From IMG/VR virus record IMGVR_UViG_2681813268_000008: a stretch of 9,463 bases of DNA; one strand, written 5' to 3'. Both the position numbers and the translations under genes were made by a program. Source of the DNA: a virus. Taxonomy: Duplodnaviria; Heunggongvirae; Uroviricota; Caudoviricetes. Shown here piece after piece: positions 1 through 9,463 of this stretch. The notes beneath the pieces are model-generated. The model did not search any database and was not told where the DNA came from. It saw nothing but the letters and a program-made list of their open reading frames with translations. Within the stretch, counting starts at the first letter, position 1. Each line of letters starts with the position of its first letter.

Positions 1-1541
1 CGCCTGCTGGTTCAGATACAGCGTAACGGTGGCTGGGTGACGGAAAAAGACATCACCATTAAGGGCAAAACCACTTCGCAGTATCTGGCCTCGGTGGTGG
101 TGGGTAACCTGCCGCCGCGCCCGTTTAATATCCGGATGCGCAGGATGACACCGGACAGCACCACAGACCAGCTGCAGAACAAAACGCTCTGGTCGTCGTA
201 CACCGAAATCATCGATGTGAAACAGTGCTACCCGAACACGGCGCTGGTCGGCGTGCAGGTGGATTCAGAGCAGTTCGGTAACCAGCAGGTGAGTCGCAAT
301 TATCATCTTCGCGGGCGCATTCTGCAGGTGCCGTCGAACTATAACCCGCAGACGCGGCAATACAGCGGTATCTGGGACGGAACGCTTAAGCCAGCATACA
401 GCAACAACATGGCCTGGTGTCTGTGGGACATGCTCACTCATCCGCGCTACGGCATGGGGAAACGTCTTGGTGCGGCAGATGTGGACAAATGGGCGCTGTA
501 TGTCATCGGCCAGTACTGCGACCAGTCAGTGACGGACGGATTTGGCGGCACGGAGCCGCGCATCACCTGTAACTCTTACCTGACCACACAGCGTAAGGCG
601 TGGGATGTTCTCAGTGATTTCTGCTCGGCGATGCGCTGTATGCCGGTATGGAACGGACAGATGCTGACGTTCGTGCAGGACCGACCGTCGGATAAGGTGT
701 GGACCTATAACCGCAGTAATGTGGTGATGCCGGACGATGGCGCGCCGTTCCGCTACAGCTTCAGCGCCCTGAAGGACCGCCATAATGCCGTTGAGGTGAA
801 CTGGATTGACCCAGATAACGGCTGGGAGACGGCGACAGAGCTTGTGGAGGATACGCAGGCCATTGTCCGTTACGGTCGTAACGTCACGAAGATGGATGCC
901 TTTGGCTGTACCAGCCGGGGGCAGGCACACCGAGCCGGGCTGTGGCTGATTAAAACGGAACTGCTGGAAACGCAGACCGTGGACTTCAGCGTGGGCGCAG
1001 AAGGGCTTCGCCATGTACCGGGTGATGTCATTGAAATCTGCGATGATGATTATGCCGGTATCAGCACCGGTGGTCGCGTACTGGCGGTGAACAGCCAGAC
1101 CCGGACGCTGACGCTCGACCGTGAAATCACGCTGCCGTCCTCCGGTACCACGCTGATAAGCCTGGTTGACGGAAGTGGCAATCCGGTCAGCGTGGAGGTC
1201 CAGTCCGTCACCGACGGCGTGAAGGTGAAAGTGAGCCGGGTTCCTGACGGCGTTGCAGAATACAGCGTGTGGGGGCTGAAGCTGCCGACGCTGCGCCAGC
1301 GTCTGTTCCGCTGCGTGAGTATCCGTGAGAACGACGACGGCACGTATGCCATCACCGCCGTGCAGCATGTGCCGGAAAAAGAGGCCATCGTGGATAACGG
1401 GGCACACTTTGACGGTGACCGGCGCGGCACGGTGAATGGTGTCACGCCGCCAGCGGTGCAGCATCTGACCGCCGAAGTCACCGCAGACAGCGGGGAATAT
1501 CAGGTGCTGGCGCGATGGGACACGCCGAAGGTGGTGAAGGG
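1..1541 (+). pseudogene. J: Tail tip / host specificity protein J, internal fragment A. The 5' end is off-window; J homology stops at 1541, and the frame-1 ORF then reads through the inverted segment to a stop at 1990-1992.
   Basis: Frame-1 translation (RLLVQIQRNGGWVTEKDITIKGK...[18 protein letters not shown]...[19 protein letters not shown]) matches the middle of lambda J as I recall it. After 1541 the + strand is the reverse complement of J sequence, so the provided ORF 37..1992 is a chimeric read-through. Confidence 0.85.
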
Positions 1542-2390
1542 ATATTCCCCGCTGTCTGCGGTGACTTCTGCGGTCAGGTGTTGCACTGCTGGCGGAGTGA
1601 CACCATTCACCGTGCCGCTCTGGTCGCCGTCAAAGTGCGCCCCGTTATCCACGATGGCTTCTTTCTCCGGCACATGCTGCACGGCAGTGATGGCATACGT
1701 ACCGTCATCGTTCTCACGGATACTCACGCAGCGGAACAGGCGCTGGCGCAGCGTCGGCAGCTTCAGCCCCCACACGCTGTATTCTGCAACGCCGTCAGGA
1801 ACCCGGCTCACTTTCACCTTCACGCCGTCGGTGACGGACTGGACCTCCACGCTGACCGGATTCCCCTGTCCGTCAACCAGGCTTATCAGCGTGGTGCCGG
1901 AGGATGGCAGCGTGATTTCACGGTCGAGCGTCAGTGTCCGCGTCTGGCTGTTCACCGCCAGCACGCGCCCGCCGATGCTGATACCCGCATAGTCATCATC
2001 ACAGATTTCAATGACATCGCCCGGTACATGGCGAAGCCCTTCAGCACCCACGCTGAAATCCACGGTCTGCGTCTCCAGCAGTTCCGTTTTAATCAGCCAC
2101 AGCCCGGCGCGGTGTGCCTGCCCCCGGCTGGTACAGCCAAAGGCATCCATCTTCGTGACGTTACGACCGTAACGGACAATGGCCTGCGTATCTTCAACAA
2201 GCTCTGTCGCCGTCTCCCAGCCGTTATTCGGGTCAATCCAGTTCACCTCAACGGCATTATGACGGTCCTTCAGGGCGCTGAAGCTGTAGCGGAACGGCGC
2301 GCCATCATCCGGCATCACCACATTACTGCGGTTATAGGCCCACACCTTATCCGACTGTCGGTCCTGCACGAACGTCAGCGTCTGCCCGTT
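1542..2390 (-). pseudogene. J: Inverted internal fragment of J (J residues ~[17 protein letters not shown]...DSGEY) on the minus strand.
   Basis: Minus-strand ORF 1500..2369 translates to [15 protein letters not shown]...LVDGQGNPV...FDGDQSGTV...DSGEY, colinear with the + strand J copies. Reverse complement of 1542-1960 equals 4531-4949 with one mismatch; reverse complement of 1962-2390 is about 97% identical to 2392-2820 (by-eye alignment). Confidence 0.8.
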
Positions 2391-3241
2391 AAACGGGCAG
2401 ACGCTGACGTTCGTGCAGGACCGACCGTCGGATAAGGTGTGGACCTATAACCGCAGTAATGTGGTGATGCCGGATGATGGCGCGCCGTTCCGCTACAGTT
2501 TCAGCGCCCTGAAAGACCGCCATAATGCCGTTGAGGTGAACTGGATTGACCCGGATAACGGCTGGGAGACGGCGACAGAGCTTGTGGAGGATACGCAGGC
2601 CATTGTCCGTTACGGTCGTAACGTCACGAAGATGGATGCCTTTGGCTGTACCAGCCGGGGGCAGGCACACCGCGCCGGGCTGTGGCTGATTAAAACGGAA
2701 CTGCTGGAGACGCAGACCGTGGATTTCAGCGTGGGTGCTGAAGGGCTTCGTCATGTACCGGGCGATGTCATTGAAATCTGCGATGATGACTATGCCGGTA
2801 TCCGCACCGGCGGGCGCGTGCTGGCGGTGAACAGCCAGACCCGGACGCTGACGCTCGACCGTGAAATCACGCTGCCGTCCTCCGGTACCACGCTGATAAG
2901 CCTGGTTGACGGAAGTGGCAATCCGGTCAGCGTGGAGGTCCAGTCCGTCACCGACGGCGTGAAGGTGAAAGTGAGCCGGGTTCCTGACGGCGTTGCAGAA
3001 TACAGCGTGTGGGGGCTGAAGCTGCCGACGCTGCGCCAGCGTCTGTTCCGCTGCGTGAGTATCCGTGAGAACGACGACGGCACGTATGCCATCACCGCCG
3101 TGCAGCATGTGCCGGAAAAAGAGGCCATCGTGGATAACGGGGCACACTTTGACGGTGACCGGCGCGGCACGGTGAATGGTGTCACGCCGCCAGCGGTGCA
3201 GCATCTGACCGCCGAAGTCACCGCAGACAGCGGGGAATATC
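1542..3241. repeat. Large imperfect inverted repeat (near-palindrome): arm 1542-2390 against arm 2392-3241, with a single unpaired base at 2391. The first ~34 bp on each side of the centre are perfectly complementary.
   Basis: Sequence around the centre is 'cctgcacgaacgtcagcgtctgcccgtt a aacgggcagacgctgacgttcgtgcagg'. Arms show about 97% identity in the proximal 430 bp by eye. Confidence 0.85.
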
Positions 3242-4539
3242 AGGTGCTGGCGCGATGGGACACGCCGAAGGTGGTGAAGGGTGTGAGCTTCCTGCTTCGC
3301 CTGACCGTGGCAGCGGACGACGGCAGTGAGCGGCTGGTCAGCACAGCCAGGACGACGGAAACCACATACCGCTTCAGGCAGCTGGCGCTGGGGAATTACA
3401 GTCTGACAGTCCGGGCGGTAAATGCCCGGGGGCAGCAGGGCGATCCGGCGTCGGTATCGTTCCGGATTGCGGCACCGGCAGCGCCTGTCACTATTGAACT
3501 GATACCGGGGTATTTTCAGATAACGGCGGTCCCGAAACTGGCTGTATATGACCCGACGGTGCAGTTTGAGTTCTGGTTTTCGGAAAAGCGGATTGCGGAT
3601 ATCAGGCAGGTTGAAACCAGCGCCCGCTATCTTGGCACGGCGCTGTACTGGATAGCCGCCAGTATCAATATCAGGCCGGGCCATGATTATTATTTTTACG
3701 TTCGCAGTGTGAACACCGTTGGCAAATCGGCATTTGTGGAGGCCATCGGTCGGGCGAGCGATGATGCAGAAGGTTATCTGAATTTTTATAAAGGGTTGAT
3801 CAATAAAACGCATCTCGGCAAGGAGTTGTGGACGCAGATTGATAACGGTCAGCTTGCGCCGGACCTGACTGAAATCAGGACGTCCATTACGAATGTCAGC
3901 AATGAAATCACGCAAACCGTCAATAAAAAACTGGAAAATCAGAGTGCTGCAATCCAGCAGATACAGAAAGTTCAGGTTGATACAAATAATAACCTGAACA
4001 GCATGTGGGCTGTGAAGCTGCAACAGATGAAGGACGGACGCCTTTATATTGCGGGTATCGGTGCCGGTATTGAGAATACGCCAGCAGGAATGCAGAGTCA
4101 GGTGCTGCTGGCGGCAGACAGGATTGCGATGATTAATCCTGCGAATGGCAACACAAAGCCGATGTTTGTTGGTCAGGGCGATCAGATATTCATGAACGAC
4201 GTGTTCCTGAAATGCCTGACGGCTCCGACCATTACCAGCGGCGGTAATCCTCCGGCATTTTCCCTGACACCTGGCGGACGGCTGACGGCGAAAAATGCCG
4301 ATATCAGCGGTAACGTGAACGCGAACTCCGGGACGCTCAACAACGTCACGATTAATAAGAACTGTCGGGTTCTGGGAAAATTGTCCGCGAACCAGATTGA
4401 AGGCGATCTCGTTAAAACAGTGGGCAAACCTTTCCCACGGGACTCCCGGGCACCGGAGAGGTGGCCATCAGGGACCATTACCGTCAGGGTTTATGACGAT
4501 CAGCCGTTTGATCGGCAAATTGTTATTCACTGGCGGTGA
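2392..4539 (+). pseudogene. J: J fragment B, from NGQTLTF to ...[11 protein letters not shown], then junction-derived codons HWR and a stop at 4537-4539. Lacks the J N-terminus and the final ~100 codons.
   Basis: Frame-1 ORF 2413..4539. 2401-2824 is ~96% identical to 661-1084 and 2825-3281 is 100% identical to 1085-1541. The distal part (3282-4528) is a divergent allele of 4990-6238. The stop arises at the B/C junction. Confidence 0.8.
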
Positions 4540-6238
4540 ACAGCCAGACGCGGACACTGACGCTCGACCGTGAAATCACGCTGCCATCCTCCGGCACCAC
4601 GCTGATAAGCCTGGTTGACGGACAGGGGAATCCGGTCAGCGTGGAGGTCCAGTCCGTCACCGACGGCGTGAAGGTGAAAGTGAGCCGGGTTCCTGACGGC
4701 GTTGCAGAATACAGCGTGTGGGGGCTGAAGCTGCCGACGCTGCGCCAGCGCCTGTTCCGCTGCGTGAGTATCCGTGAGAACGATGACGGTACGTATGCCA
4801 TCACTGCCGTGCAGCATGTGCCGGAGAAAGAAGCCATCGTGGATAACGGGGCGCACTTTGACGGCGACCAGAGCGGCACGGTGAATGGTGTCACTCCGCC
4901 AGCAGTGCAACACCTGACCGCAGAAGTCACCGCAGACAGCGGGGAATACCAGGTGCTGGCGCGCTGGGATACGCCGAAGGTGGTGAAGGGCGTGAGCTTT
5001 ATGCTTCGCCTGACCGTGGCAGCGGATGACGGCAGTGAGCGGCTGGTCAGCACAGCCCGGACGACGGAAACCACATACCGCTTCAGGCAGCTGGCTCTGG
5101 GAAATTACAGTCTGACAGTCCGGGCGGTAAATGCGTGGGGGCAGCAGGGCGATCCGGCGTCGGTATCGTTCCGGATTGCCGCACCGGCAGCGCCATCGCG
5201 GATTGAGCTGACGCCGGGCTATTTTCAGATAACCGCCACGCCGCATCTTGCGGTTTATGATCCGACTGTACAGTTTGAGTTCTGGTTCTCGGAAAAGCGG
5301 ATTGCGGATATCAGGCAGGTTGAAACCAGCGCGCGTTATCTTGGTACGGCGCTGCACTGGATAGCCGCCAGTATCAATATCAAACCGGGCCATGATTATT
5401 ATTTTTACGTTCGCAGTGTGAACACCGTTGGCAAATCGGCATTCGTGGAGGCTGTCGGTCGGGCGAGCGATGATGCGGAAGGTTACCTGGATTTTTTCAA
5501 AGGAGAAATCGGGAAAGCACATCTGGCCCAGGAGCTGTGGACGCAGGTTGATAACGGTCAGCTTGCGCCTGATCTGGCTGAAATCAGGACGTCCATTACG
5601 AATGTCAGCAATGAAATCACGCAGACCGTCAATAAAAAACTGGAAAATCAGAGCGCGGCAATCCAGCAGATACAGAAAGTTCAGGTTGATACAAATAATA
5701 ACCTGAACAGCATGTGGGCCGTGAAACTGCAGCAGATGAAGGACGGACGCCTTTATATTGCGGGTATCGGAGCCGGTATTGAGAATACGCCAGCAGGTAT
5801 GCAGAGTCAGGTGCTTCTGGCTGCTGACCGGATTGCGATGATTAATCCTGCGAATGGCAACACAAAGCCGATGTTTGTTGGTCAGGGCGATCAGATATTC
5901 ATGAACGAAGTGTTCCTGAAATACCTGACGGCTCCCACCATTACCAGCGGCGGTAATCCTCCGGCATTTTCCCTGACACCGGACGGGCGGCTGACGGCGA
6001 AAAATGCCGATATCAGCGGTAACGTGAATGCGAACTCCGGGACGCTCAACAACGTCACGATTAACGAAAACTGTCGGGTTCTGGGAAAACTGTCCGCCAA
6101 CCAGATTGAAGGCGATCTCGTTAAAACAGTGGGCAAAGCTTTCCCCCGGGACTCCCGTGCACCGGAGCGGTGGCCATCAGGGACCATTACCGTCAGGGTT
6201 TATGACGATCAGCCGTTTGACCGGCAGATTGTTATTCC
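2819..6238. repeat. Tandem direct repeat of a ~1709-bp J unit (2819-4528 and 4529-6238). Copies are divergent, roughly 90-95% identical in the distal half; the junction is at 4528/4529.
   Basis: 'ctggcggtgaacagcc' occurs at 2821 and 4530; 'attgttattc' at 4519-4528 and 6228-6237. The period of 1709 is not a multiple of 3, which explains the frameshift and stop at 4537-4539. Confidence 0.8.
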
Positions 6239-6524
6239 GGCGGTGGCATTCAGCGGCGCTAAACATGAGAAAGAGCATACTGATATTTACTCCTCATGCC
6301 GTCTGATAGTGCGGAAAAACGGTGCTGAAATTTATAACCGTACCGCGCTGGATAATACGCTGATTTACAGTGGTGTTATTGATATGCCTGCCGGTCACGG
6401 TCACATGACACTGGAGTTTTCGGTGTCAGCATGGCTGGTGAATAACTGGTATCCCACAGCAAGTATCAGCGATTTGCTGGTTGTGGTGATGAAGAAAGCC
6501 ACCGCAGGCATCAGTATCAGCTGA
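4530..6524 (+). CDS. J: J C-terminal fragment C ([10 protein letters not shown]...[10 protein letters not shown]), frame 3, with the native J stop at 6522-6524. Includes the distal receptor-binding region; N-terminally truncated and out of frame with fragment B.
   Basis: ORF 4536..6524 (GTG at 4536 is an internal Val codon in native J). Colinear with fragment B at a constant offset of 1709 bp (2821 to 4530; 4522 to 6231). Ends in a J-like C-terminus followed by a terminator hairpin. Confidence 0.8.
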
Positions 6525-6542
6525 ATTTTATAACCCATATAC

Positions 6543-6570
6543 GGGCGCCAGAAATGGCGCCTTTTTTATT
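6543..6570 (+). terminator. Rho-independent terminator-like hairpin immediately downstream of the J stop.
   Basis: GC stem 'ggcgcc' (6544-6549), loop 'agaaat', stem 'ggcgcc' (6556-6561), followed by 'ttttttatt'. Confidence 0.6.
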
Positions 6571-6591
6571 GCAGAAAAGCGAGAGGTAATT

Positions 6592-7191
6592 ATGCGTAAA
6601 GTTTGTGCAGCCATTTTGTCCGCAGCCATCTGTCTGTCCGTATCCGGTGCGCCTGCATGGGCGTCTGAACATCAGTCCACACTGAGCGCGGGGTATCTTC
6701 ATGCCCGTACGAACGCTCCCGGCAGCGATAATCTGAACGGGATTAACGTGAAATACCGTTATGAGTTTACGGACGCGCTGGGGCTGATTACGTCCTTCAG
6801 TTATGCCAATGCTGAGGATGAGCAAAAAACGCACTACAGCGATACCCGCTGGCATGAAGATTCCGTGCGTAACCGCTGGTTCAGCGTGATGGCGGGGCCG
6901 TCTGTACGCGTGAATGAATGGTTCAGCGCGTATGCGATGGTGGGTGTGGCTTACAGCCGTGTGTCGACTTTCTCCGGGGATTATCTCCGCGTAACTGACA
7001 ACAAGGGGAAAACGCACGATGTGCTGACCGGAAGTGATGACGGTCGCCACAGCAACACGTCTCTGGCGTGGGGGGCTGGCGTGCAGTTTAACCCGACCGA
7101 ATCCGTGACCATTGACCTTGCTTATGAAGGTTCCGGTAGTGGCGACTGGCGAACGGATGCATTTATTGTTGGTATCGGATACCGTTTCTGA
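6592..7191 (+). CDS. lom: Lom-family outer membrane protein (Ail/Lom/PagC/OmpX beta-barrel family), a prophage-encoded moron.
   Basis: 199-aa ORF with an N-terminal signal-peptide-like segment (MRKVCAAILSAAICLSVSGAPAWA), a conserved C-terminus (...AYEGSGSGDWRTDAFIVGIGYRF) matching lambda Lom as I recall it, position between J and stf as in lambda, and an RBS-like 'gagagg' 7 nt upstream of the ATG. Confidence 0.88.
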   Translation: MRKVCAAILSAAICLSVSGAPAWASEHQSTLSAGYLHARTNAPGSDNLNGINVKYRYEFTDALGLITSFSYANAEDEQKTHYSDTRWHEDSVRNRWFSVMAGPSVRVNEWFSAYAMVGVAYSRVSTFSGDYLRVTDNKGKTHDVLTGSDDGRHSNTSLAWGAGVQFNPTESVTIDLAYEGSGSGDWRTDAFIVGIGYRF

Positions 7192-7295
7192 CAACAGACG
7201 CCGATTTATCTTCTGTAAATATTGTTATGATACGCAGGTTCATCCACCTTATGGGGTGAACTGCGTTTGAGGAAACGTAAAGTTACACTGTCCTG

Positions 7296-7329
7296 AAGCC
7301 CGTGGCGTCACTGCTGCGGGCTTTTTTTA
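7296..7329 (+). terminator. Rho-independent terminator-like hairpin between lom and stf.
   Basis: Stem 'aagcccg' (7296-7302) pairs with 'cgggctt' (7317-7323), followed by a T7 run (7322-7328). Confidence 0.55.
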
Positions 7330-7342
7330 TTGGTGGAAAAGT

Positions 7343-9274
7343 ATGACAGTAAAAATTTCTGGCGTGCTTAAAGATGGCACAGGAAAACCAGTACAGAACT
7401 GCACCATTGTGCTGAAGGCCAGACGAACCAGCAGCACGGTGGTGGTGAACACGGTGGCCTCTGAAAATCCGGATGAAGCCGGACGTTACAGCATGGATGT
7501 TGAGCATGGCCAGTACAGCGTCACCCTGCTGGTTGAAGGTTTTCCGCCTTCACATGCCGGGATCATTACCGTCTATGAAGGTTCCAGACCCGGTACGCTG
7601 AATGATTTTCTCGGTGCCATGACGGAGGATGATGTCCGACCGGAGGCACTGCGCCGCTTTGAGCAGATGGTGGAAGAGGTGTCACGTAACGCCTCCGCGG
7701 TTGCACAGAACACGGCAGCCGCGAAGAAGTCAGCCAGCGATGCCAGCATATCTGCCAGTGAGGCGGCAACCCATGCGACTGATGCTGCAGGCTCAGCACG
7801 TGCAGCCAGCACATCAGCCGGGCAGGCCGCGACGTCGGCTCAGTCAGCGTCTTCCAGCGCAGGAACGGCATCAACAAAGGCTACTGAAGCATCAAAAAGT
7901 GCTGCCGCTGCAGAGTCCTCAAAAAGAGCGGTGGCTACCAGTGCCGGTGCGGCGAAAACGTCAGAAACGAATGCGGCTGCGTCACAACAATCAGCAGCCA
8001 CTTCTGCATCCACCGCGACCACGAAAGCGTCAGAAGCAGCCACTTCAGCACGGGATGCGGCGGCCTCAAAAGAGGCAGCGAAGACATCCGAAACGAATGC
8101 GAAAGCCTCGGAAACCAGCGCAGAATCCTCAAAAACGGCTGCCGCATCGTCCGCCAGTTCGGCGGCGTCATCGGCATCATCTGCGTCTGCTTCAAAAGAT
8201 GAGGCGACCAGACAGGCGTCAGCAGCAAAGGGCAGCGCCACGACGGCATCCACGAAGGCGACAGAGGCAGCTGGCAGTGCGACGGCGGCAGCTCAGAGCA
8301 AAAGTACGGCGGAATCCGCGGCAACGCGCGCCGAGACAGCGGCAAAACGGGCAGAGGATATTGCATCCGCCGTGGCGCTTGAGGATGCGAGCACGACGAA
8401 AAAGGGGATAGTACAGCTCAGCAGTGCGACCAACAGTACGTCTGAAACGCTGGCGGCAACGCCAAAGGCAGTAAAATCAGCCTATGACAATGCAGAGAAA
8501 CGTCTGCAGAAAGACCAGAACGGCGCTGATATACCCGATAAGGGACGCTTCCTGAACAACATTAACGCGGTCAGTAAAACAGACTTTGCTGATAAGCGTG
8601 GTATGCGTTATGTGCGGGTTAACGCTCCTGCAGGTGCAACATCTGGAAAATATTACCCTGTTGTTGTTATGCGTTCTGCTGGCTCAGTAAGCGAACTGGC
8701 ATCAAGGGTCATTATCACCACGGCAACGCGAACCGCAGGCGATCCGATGAATAACTGCGAGTTTAACGGATTTGTTATGCCTGGTGGCTGGACTGACAGG
8801 GGGCGTTATGCTTATGGAATGTTCTGGCAATATCAAAACAATGAACGAGCCATCCACTCAATAATGATGAGTAATAAGGGCGATGATTTGCGCTCTGTGT
8901 TCTATGTTGATGGCGCTGCTTTCCCTGTTTTTGCGTTTATCGAAGATGGCCTGTCAATATCCGCACCTGGTGCTGATCTCGTTGTTAATGATACGACCTA
9001 TAAGTTTGGGGCAACAAATCCAGCGACTGAATGTATCGCGGCGGACGTTATCCTTGATTTTAAGAGTGGGCGTGGTTTTTATGAGTCTCATTCGTTAATC
9101 GTTAACGATAATTTGTCGTGCAAAAAACTTTTTGCCACAGACGAAATTGTAGCGCGTGGTGGTAATCAGATTCGAATGATAGGTGGGGAGTATGGTGCAT
9201 TATGGCGTAATGATGGCGCTAAAACTTACCTGCTGCTTACCAATCAAGGTGATGTTTATGAAGTGGCACACTGA
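7343..9274 (+). CDS. stf: Side tail fiber protein Stf, with a lambda-Stf-like N-terminus and Ala/Ser-rich repeat shaft. The C-terminus appears truncated by an IS insertion; the last codons and stop come from the IS end.
   Basis: 643-aa ORF. The N-terminus (MTVKISGVLKDGTGKPVQNCTIVLKARR...GFPPSHAGIITVYE...) and the low-complexity A/S/T-rich region match lambda Stf (orf-401) from memory. The ORF ends ...LLLTNQGDVYEVAH*, where 'tgaagtggcacactga' (9259-9274) is the start of the IS terminal repeat. Confidence 0.82.
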   Translation: MTVKISGVLKDGTGKPVQNCTIVLKARRTSSTVVVNTVASENPDEAGRYSMDVEHGQYSVTLLVEGFPPSHAGIITVYEGSRPGTLNDFLGAMTEDDVRPEALRRFEQMVEEVSRNASAVAQNTAAAKKSASDASISASEAATHATDAAGSARAASTSAGQAATSAQSASSSAGTASTKATEASKSAAAAESSKRAVATSAGAAKTSETNAAASQQSAATSASTATTKASEAATSARDAAASKEAAKTSETNAKASETSAESSKTAAASSASSAASSASSASASKDEATRQASAAKGSATTASTKATEAAGSATAAAQSKSTAESAATRAETAAKRAEDIASAVALEDASTTKKGIVQLSSATNSTSETLAATPKAVKSAYDNAEKRLQKDQNGADIPDKGRFLNNINAVSKTDFADKRGMRYVRVNAPAGATSGKYYPVVVMRSAGSVSELASRVIITTATRTAGDPMNNCEFNGFVMPGGWTDRGRYAYGMFWQYQNNERAIHSIMMSNKGDDLRSVFYVDGAAFPVFAFIEDGLSISAPGADLVVNDTTYKFGATNPATECIAADVILDFKSGRGFYESHSLIVNDNLSCKKLFATDEIVARGGNQIRMIGGEYGALWRNDGAKTYLLLTNQGDVYEVAH

Positions 9275-9463
9275 ATTTGGCCACCTGAACAGAGGTGATA
9301 TGCTCACCTCAGAACAACACAGGTGCTCCAATGAAAAAAAGAAATTTCAGCGCAGAGTTTAAACGCGAATCCGCTCAACTGGTTGTTGACCAGAACTACA
9401 CGGTGGCAGATGCCGCCAAAGCTATGGATGTTGGCCTTTCCACAATGACAAGATGGGTCAAAC
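9259..9463 (+). mobile_element. IS3-family insertion sequence, IS911-like, left end. Partial; it continues beyond the window.
   Basis: Terminal sequence begins 'TGAAGTGGCACACTGAATTTGGCC...' (a TG... end typical of the IS3 family), followed 72 bp later by an ORF beginning [44 protein letters not shown], which I recognise as IS911 OrfA. Confidence 0.75.
9331..9463 (+). CDS. insN: IS3-family (IS911-like) transposase OrfA, N-terminal helix-turn-helix part. Partial; the 3' end is off-window.
   Basis: ATG at 9331; translation [44 protein letters not shown]... is characteristic of IS911/IS3-group OrfA. There is no stop before the window end, so it is absent from the provided ORF track. Confidence 0.75.

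Follow-up and report, generated by a model that had tools for sequence, protein, structure and literature searches.

The stretch of DNA analysed here (the window, 9,463 nucleotides) is the whole of contig CXEW01000190.1 (9463 bp) in assembly GCA_001260755.1. Its right-hand part carries genes of a lambda-like prophage in the order J, lom and stf, followed directly by the left end of an insertion sequence (Table 1). The deposited product of the 643-aa stf ORF is named as a Shigella sonnei "tail component encoded by cryptic prophage CP-933M". As intact comparator from the same species we used S. sonnei locus L017, whose stf protein (P0009) has 1025 aa. Window positions 4530-9260 correspond to L017 7188-11918 with all 4731 of 4731 nucleotides identical, and the identity ends at 9260. 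The gene order in L017 is tape-measure, minor tail genes, J (1159 aa), lom, stf (1025 aa) and tfa (194 aa); beyond tfa lie a reverse-strand methyltransferase, a tfa fragment and then chromosomal genes. By Pfam content and order, and with names taken from the K-12 map, this flank is presumably potB-potA-pepT-roxA-phoQ-phoP-purB. The order J-lom-stf-tfa recurs in intact loci, and an exact look-up of Lom returned only E. coli-type intact loci, which served as further comparators.

Table 1. Features of the right-hand part of the window (coordinates in the 9,463-nucleotide stretch)
Feature	Coordinates	Strand	Remarks
J (tail-tip gene), 3' part, from about codon 498	4536..6524	+	window 4530 onward 100% identical to L017 7188 onward
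lom (Ail/Lom outer-membrane protein), intact, upstream of stf	6592..7191	+	Pfam Ail_Lom
stf, native 5' part	7343..9258	+	codons 1-638 plus two bases of codon 639; 100.000% identical to L017 10001-11916
Target-site duplication, left copy, TTA	9256..9258	.	single TTA in intact stf (L017 11914-11916)
IS911, first 205 nt, then contig end	9259..9463	+	205/205 identical to the L002 copy, E = 2e-103
IS911 left terminal inverted repeat (IRL), 36 bp, starts 5'-TG	9259..9294	+	identical to the IRL of the L002 copy
IS-encoded tail of the chimeric Stf ORF	9260..9274	+	GAA GTG GCA CAC (EVAH), TGA at 9272-9274
IS911 orfA, 5' part, 44 codons, same direction as stf	9331..9463	+	gene call; HTH_Tnp_1, E = 2.5e-7

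The stf ORF (7343-9274, 643 aa) ends in ...LLLTNQGDVYEVAH*. Where intact stf of E. coli ABWA45 and S. sonnei L017 reads GGT GAT GTT TAT GGT GGC TGG AAT, the window reads GGT GAT GTT TAT GAA GTG GCA CAC TGA. The codon of Y639 is completed by T9259, a base common to stf and the IS, and codons 640-643 together with the stop codon are IS-derived, as the earlier note had proposed for the last codons and the TGA. Measured against the 1025-codon intact gene, the window ORF retains 639 native codons and has lost 386, which answers how many residues are missing relative to intact homologues. Among the closest homologues are S. sonnei proteins, 1024-1025 aa long, with 100% identity across the native part of the query, and after NQGDVY all the other top homologues (119/119) read on as GGWNTL or GDWNTL, with not one natural end at this position. 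The short C-terminus is thus no native variant among these proteins, and the IS repeat begins 386 residues before the native stop.

Pfam places phage_tail_N (PF08400) at Stf residues 1-134 (E = 6.7e-70), Phage_fiber_2 at residues 350-390 of the window protein and Gp34_trimer at residues 551-639, where the match stops at profile position 105/116. In intact Stf the same domain covers residues 551-650, so that the cut falls within the match. Removed by the cut are a gp37_C-like segment, the Collar (795-842), a fibre repeat and a His-rich tip; the last three are present only in the intact allele or in the remnant ORF described below, and absent from the window protein. In tblastn, queries with Tfa and with the 386 Stf residues that are cut off gave no match in the window (best E = 0.6), in agreement with the earlier observation that the window lacks tfa. 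What marks a member of the Stf family at its proximal side, namely the N-terminal tail fibre domain and a place after J and lom, is present; the complete distal part and the adjoining tfa are absent from the window, and because of this we classify the window stf as a predicted pseudogene fragment of the Stf family, without the status of a functional member.

The sequence that ends the stf frame belongs to a well characterized element. Starting at 9259, TGAAGTGGCACACTGAATTTGGCCACCTGAACAGAG is the 36-bp IRL of copies annotated 'IS3-like element IS911 family transposase', and 36 bp is the length described for IS911 inverted repeats (PMC2909936). The complete IS911 copy used as reference (1250 bp, L002 2503-3752) also begins TGAAGTGGCACACTGAATTTGGCCACCTGAACAGAG; its IRL and IRR match at 24/36 positions, it encodes a 100-aa orfA and it has an A6G motif at nt 324. 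The orfA start in the window (ATG 9331) is identical to the start of this 100-aa OrfA, and window positions 9257-9463 are 100% identical to several annotated IS911-family copies in E. coli. As TG at 9259-9260 is common to stf and the IS, the junction is placed within 2 bases. The earlier note had spoken of an IS911-like element cutting stf from about 9259; the cut is borne out and the position proves to be exact, and with 205/205 identity the inserted element can be named, as far as sequence identifies it, as IS911 itself, beyond merely IS911-like.

The two sides of the junction behave very differently in database searches. In megablast against 5,426 complete E. coli genomes, positions 8900-9267 match prophage tail fibre genes at 99.5%, several of them labelled stfR, and positions 9255-9463 alone give thousands of matches, with as many as 24 in a single genome. 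With 8900-9463 as query the stf-IS911 junction is spanned in 0/5,426 of these genomes (query coverage stays below 80% in every record), which means only that the junction is not an E. coli allele. A 41-mer across the junction was likewise absent from one-genome-per-species contigs, a collection in which Shigella apparently has no separate entry. By exact protein identity, the 643-aa chimeric protein occurs on six contigs only, each 5-10 kb long and from sibling assemblies (CXEX, CXEE, CXEJ and others), with at least four independently assembled genomes among them. The window contig and its sister L004 differ at 1 base in 4934, which indicates that their genomes would be very close relatives.

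IS911 is one of five IS expanded across all Shigella species and is present in S. sonnei 53G (PMC7373316). The window, a whole short-read contig, stops inside the element because IS911 is present in many copies in Shigella: the window's end is a contig boundary created by the repeat, one of the two explanations offered earlier. The sister contigs with the left junction (L004-L006) end in the same way, 48, 89 and 209 nt into IS911, and the partner contigs with the right junction begin 149-493 nt before the IS911 right end. A gene seemingly without its partner at a contig end, here stf without tfa, should therefore raise the suspicion of an assembly boundary before that of gene loss.

We built the expected reciprocal joint (IS911 right end + TTA + remaining stf) beforehand. 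In this construct the stf frame is closed by a TGA in the IRR, and the first in-frame start, a GTG, gives a remnant of 325 aa. Exactly this protein is on record (P0241, "side tail fiber protein [Shigella sonnei]") on four contigs, in S. sonnei only, with accessions of the CSS/CSR series, which are shared with window-type proteins. A guessed 272-aa remnant with an ATG start returned nothing in a homology search of cluster representatives, and exact look-ups of 272-aa and 274-aa versions found none. The four right-hand contigs (L021-L024) begin within IS911 orfB, whose C-terminus carries rve/rve_3, and all contain the IRR end ...GTTGACCACTTCA at the partner junction. In L021 and L022 the joint is IRR ...CCACTTCA, then TTA, then TGGTGGCTGG; read over a longer distance it is ...GGCCAGTTTTTGTTGACCACTTCA, TTA, TGGTGGCTGGAATAC..., and CCACTTCATTATGGTGGC is the sequence across the IRR-TTA-stf joint of this simple-insertion allele. 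From the right-hand TTA onward (L021 494-496, L022 416-418) both contigs follow L017 11914-23078 (11.2 kb) with 99.97-99.98% identity, via an intact tfa into the chromosomal flank.

TTA thus stands before the IRL in the window, after the IRR in L021 and L022, and once in the intact allele, which makes it a target duplication of 3 bp, the size characteristic of IS911; a 4-bp duplication is excluded by the flanks (TTTA vs TTAT). Assembly GCA_001261655.1 has both junctions, the left one in L004 and the right one in L022, with the same IS orientation and TTA at both, and because of this a single simple IS911 insertion would be the simplest reading. The 494 nt of the right end in a sister contig are 97.4% identical to the E. 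coli reference copy of IS911, with 1 mismatch in the IRR. No contig linked to either junction covers IS nt 206-756, which include the A6G frameshift site, and it is the target duplication that points to one 1250-bp IS copy at the site. A search of the IRR/stf joint for a sigma-70-like hybrid outward promoter, which might serve the remnant and tfa, found none. The other end of the IS thus yielded, in sister assemblies, both the remainder of stf and tfa, along with a 3-bp duplication, within the 3-4 bp that the earlier note had asked for. That note had considered the distal stf and tfa "missing or displaced". Displacement is what L021 and L022 contain, and the possibility of loss fails there, with tfa intact after the IS; for the genome of the window itself, the same displacement is probable.

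The state beyond the IS varies within the S. sonnei clone, because the right junction of L023 and L024 differs from that of L021 and L022. In L023 and L024 the IRR tip is joined directly to TGGTGTTGAG (L017 12052), and CCACTTCATGGTGTTGAG is the sequence across this IRR-stf joint. These contigs lack TTA and 132 further stf bases, 135 bp in all, and there is no microhomology at the joint. Assembly GCA_001260455.1 pairs the shorter right allele with the standard left junction (L005). A slippage or microhomology origin was rejected, as no shared bases flank the deletion and TTA is lost as well. The unrelated E. coli contigs P0017 and P0031 also break at residue 684 (nt 12052), and because they break exactly there, residue 684 is a module, repeat or mosaic boundary. 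The shorter allele could have arisen as an adjacent deletion made by transposase or through a second IS911 insertion (duplication TGG), whether or not recombination came afterwards; less likely is an assembly artefact in which stf was collapsed with a paralogous fibre gene.

The condition of J bears on the state of the prophage as a whole. Upstream of 4530, self-comparison resolves the window into a mosaic of J paralogues: positions 1-1541 and 2392-4538 match J paralogues at about 94%, 1543-2390 is an inverted J segment whose first 419 nt are the exact reverse complement of 4530-4948, and position 2391 is the centre of a perfect fold-back. Across the 4530 breakpoint three sister contigs keep the order of intact J, and because of this the J mosaic of the window is judged a probable assembly chimera among J paralogues. 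The disruption of J in the window was accordingly dropped as evidence of decay, being probably artefactual, and the IS21 junction of L004 was used in its place. The first 80 nt of L004 match the right end of IS21 at 100% identity (the istB 3' end to within one base of the terminus), and this end adjoins J at L017 6759, the same coordinate as the fold-back in the window. In this lineage, J is therefore genuinely interrupted by an IS, namely IS21 in the sister L004.

J is essential for the phage. Lambda PaPa, a laboratory lambda, is reportedly viable without a functional stf, a frameshift having split the gene into orf401 and orf314; stf is thus dispensable for forming plaques, and because of that a broken stf alone is no proof of decay. 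Taken together, J::IS21 and stf::IS911 support a prophage that is most likely eroding and would be defective. The earlier reading of a decaying prophage hence stands, on the strength of J::IS21 in L004, and the broken J of the window, which had been offered as its evidence, does not.

Our assessment, with a probability of about 0.86, is that IS911 transposition into stf split the gene, and that the distal stf and tfa follow the IS on another contig. IS911 transposes by copy-out/paste-in via a circular intermediate, and its OrfAB is made by -1 frameshifting (PMC2909936). By this route the element, a member of the IS3 family, would have inserted into stf of a lambda-like prophage carried by a small sublineage of Shigella sonnei, between bases 2 and 3 of codon 639 of 1025, with duplication of the target TTA. 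Translation of stf would then continue for 15 bases into the left inverted repeat, add E-V-A-H and halt at TGA, and the late phage transcript would yield Stf(1-639)-EVAH, a product that keeps the tail-attachment domain and the proximal shaft and lacks the last 386 residues, a loss that takes in where the Gp34-like trimerisation domain ends, the collar domain, and the distal, His-rich part for receptor binding. Because the distal trimerisation and receptor-binding parts are gone, a working fibre would not be expected from the truncated Stf. Rather than being deleted, the rest of stf would have been shifted by about 1.25 kb by the IS, along with an intact tfa and the flanking chromosome, in a prophage under multiple IS attack.

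What lies to the right of the IS in the window's own genome is the point on which the alternatives differ. That genome may have the shorter right allele, in which the IRR is joined at L017 12052 and 135 bp are missing with tfa still present, either through transposase-mediated adjacent deletion or through a nearby second IS911 (TGG) followed by recombination between the copies. We regard this as a tentative but serious possibility, since 2 of the 4 assemblies with a recovered right junction (L023 and L024) have this allele, GCA_001260455.1 carries the identical left junction (L005) too, and the joint lies exactly at the IS tip without microhomology, as expected of a joint made by transposase. 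The other 2 of the 4 show the simple TTA-flanked junction, however, and the break of P0017 and P0031 at the same nt 12052 leaves room for a collapsed-paralogue artefact; neither right allele is linked to GCA_001260755.1. It is much less probable, and in our view unlikely, that recombination between IS911 copies (deletion or inversion) has removed the distal stf and tfa from this genome or carried them far off. The window does end in the IS, the exact 325-aa remnant ORF was found in four other assemblies only and is not among the records of GCA_001260755.1, and Shigella genomes have hundreds of IS copies with frequent IS-mediated rearrangements (PMC7373316). Against this, all 4 of the 4 related assemblies with a partner contig have the stf 3' part, tfa and the same flank after the IRR, and the window is separated from its sister L004 by that single base; a missing exact-ORF match also weighs little, since a single SNP, an N or a break in the contig is enough to mask the remnant.

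That the junction is not biological, being a chimeric misassembly of stf and IS911, or that Stf is a naturally short variant, has a negligible probability. The left part of the window contig does contain an apparent chimera, with the fold-back at 2391, but the identical 643-aa ORF is found on 6 contigs from at least four separate assemblies, the reciprocal junction exists with a matching 3-bp duplication, and the break falls exactly at the IS tip (5'-TG); a short variant is contradicted by the 119 homologues that continue beyond the break. A further thought concerns the choice of target. The stf sequence to the right of the IS (TTA-TGGTGGC) resembles the 3-bp spacer and IRL tip TGAAGTGGC of the reactive IRR-IRL junction in an IS911 circle, so that an end-like target could have attracted IS911, and the resulting pseudo-junction might then have driven the re-joining of the IRR 135 bp downstream that sister isolates show, again beside TGGTG. 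If true, this would be a natural case of IR-targeted insertion followed by a junction-driven adjacent deletion. We consider such targeting very improbable: by eye, the likeness consists only of TG + GTGGC with a 2-nt gap, which was judged insufficient, and nothing similar was seen where transposase binds inside the IR.

The simple insertion of IS911 into stf has consequences for the deposited records. The 643-aa "tail component" is a chimeric product of a predicted pseudogene, with its last four residues and stop derived from the IS, and the 325-aa "side tail fiber protein" of sister assemblies is its other half. The stf::IS911 junction and the two right-hand alleles are exact markers of a small clone of S. 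sonnei.

IS911, an IS3-family element first described in Shigella dysenteriae, is a model for copy-out/paste-in transposition, and the element at this locus agrees with it in the IRL (36/36), in the first 205 nt, in the ends 5'-TG...CA-3' and in the 3-bp duplication. It also has the orfA N-terminus with HTH_Tnp_1 in the window, and orfB with rve and the IRR at the partner junction of the sisters, and there is no difference in kind. Lambdoid side tail fibres include lambda Stf, StfR (Rac) and StfQ (Qin), with the chaperone gene tfa downstream. RefSeq names the close homologues stfR and the genes after them tfaQ and pinQ. The locus resembles lambdoid stf loci in the order J-lom-stf-tfa, and its intact allele resembles lambdoid Stf in phage_tail_N, an Ala/Ser-rich shaft, Gp34_trimer, Collar and a His-rich distal part; unlike these, the window stf breaks off after residue 639 of 1025, and the IS separates it from its 3' part and tfa. 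With lambda PaPa it shares a lambdoid side tail fibre gene broken mid-gene, but the lesion there is a 1-bp frameshift and here an IS, and in the Shigella lineage J is also interrupted by IS21. In Shigella, expanded IS cause lineage-specific gene interruptions and short-read assembly breaks (Hawkey et al. 2020, PMC7373316). stf::IS911, in a few assemblies only, is one such site of IS-driven pseudogenisation. Overall, the type of event is already known: an ordinary IS911 insertion in a Shigella prophage, of a kind catalogued at population scale.

The J region of the window (J encodes the tail tip), nucleotides 1-4538, was found by sequence comparison to be a mosaic, in which two J-paralogue pieces, 98% identical to each other across their overlap, flank an inverted J segment (see table for coordinates). 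The initial 419 nt of this segment are the exact reverse complement of window 4530-4948, and a perfect fold-back is centred at window 2391 (...CTGCCCGTT A AACGGGCAG...). Across the 4530 breakpoint, intact J and the sister contigs are collinear, which argues that the mosaic, as judged from these comparisons, looks like an assembly chimera and not biology. A minus-strand ORF in this region was rejected as a separate gene, since it is no more than the inverted segment read in the J frame (J residues ~353-635).

The sister contig L004, which shares the stf/IS911 left junction of the window, carries IS21 sequence at the same coordinate as the fold-back. Its nucleotides 1-80 match the IS21 right end at 100% identity, spanning the istB 3' end and reaching within one base of the terminus, and they adjoin J at position 6759/6760 of L017, the intact S. 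sonnei reference locus. The abutment of the IS21 right end on J means that IS21 truly interrupts J in this S. sonnei lineage.

Features in the window and in related contigs
Feature	Location	Strand	Remarks
J paralogue pieces	window 1-1541 and 2392-4538		~94%
Inverted J segment	window 1543-2390		
289-aa ORF	window 1500-2369	minus	no Pfam entry on record
Long Ala/Ser/Thr-rich low-complexity shaft	window 7700-8380		Stf residues ~120-345
IS21 right end/J joint	L004 1-81 (CXEX01000209.1)		equivalent to window 2391/2392
Allele-B right junction	L023 144-160; L024 142-158		IS911 IRR joined directly to stf
Methyltransferase gene and 88-aa second tfa-like fragment	L017 13717-14708	reverse (methyltransferase gene)	3' of tfa

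A second IS911 right junction, allele B, is present in two further sister contigs (L023 and L024). Its joint reads CCACTTCA|TGGTGTTGAG, with stf resuming at L017 12052; it is without the TTA, and its stf is 135 bp shorter than in the contigs with the first right junction (L021 and L022). TGGTG opens the right flanks of both alleles, and no microhomology was found flanking the allele-B joint in L023 and L024. Two partial E. coli Stf proteins, P0017 (684 aa) and P0031 (767 aa), each stop exactly 45 residues past the NQGDVY motif, at residue 684 of intact Stf. This coincides with the allele-B junction and suggests that stf has a boundary here, either of a recombination module or of a repeat, that is prone to assembly breaks.

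The shaft differs in length between Stf homologues, whose totals range from 1004 to 1137 aa, and the residue equivalent to the breakpoint is 639 in the window Stf vs ~752 in E. coli ABWA45. Several spurious overlapping ORFs lie within the shaft region on both strands. Many near-identical homologues of the window Stf (7343-9274) are named 'short-chain fatty acid transporter' at NCBI, evidently a propagated annotation error.

The 88-aa tfa-like fragment that lies 3' of tfa in the intact locus matches the 3' end of tfa across 144 nt at ~90% identity. Together with the methyltransferase gene, it may be the remnant of an invertible fibre-switch module; in E. coli ABWA45, this position is instead occupied by the pinQ invertase.
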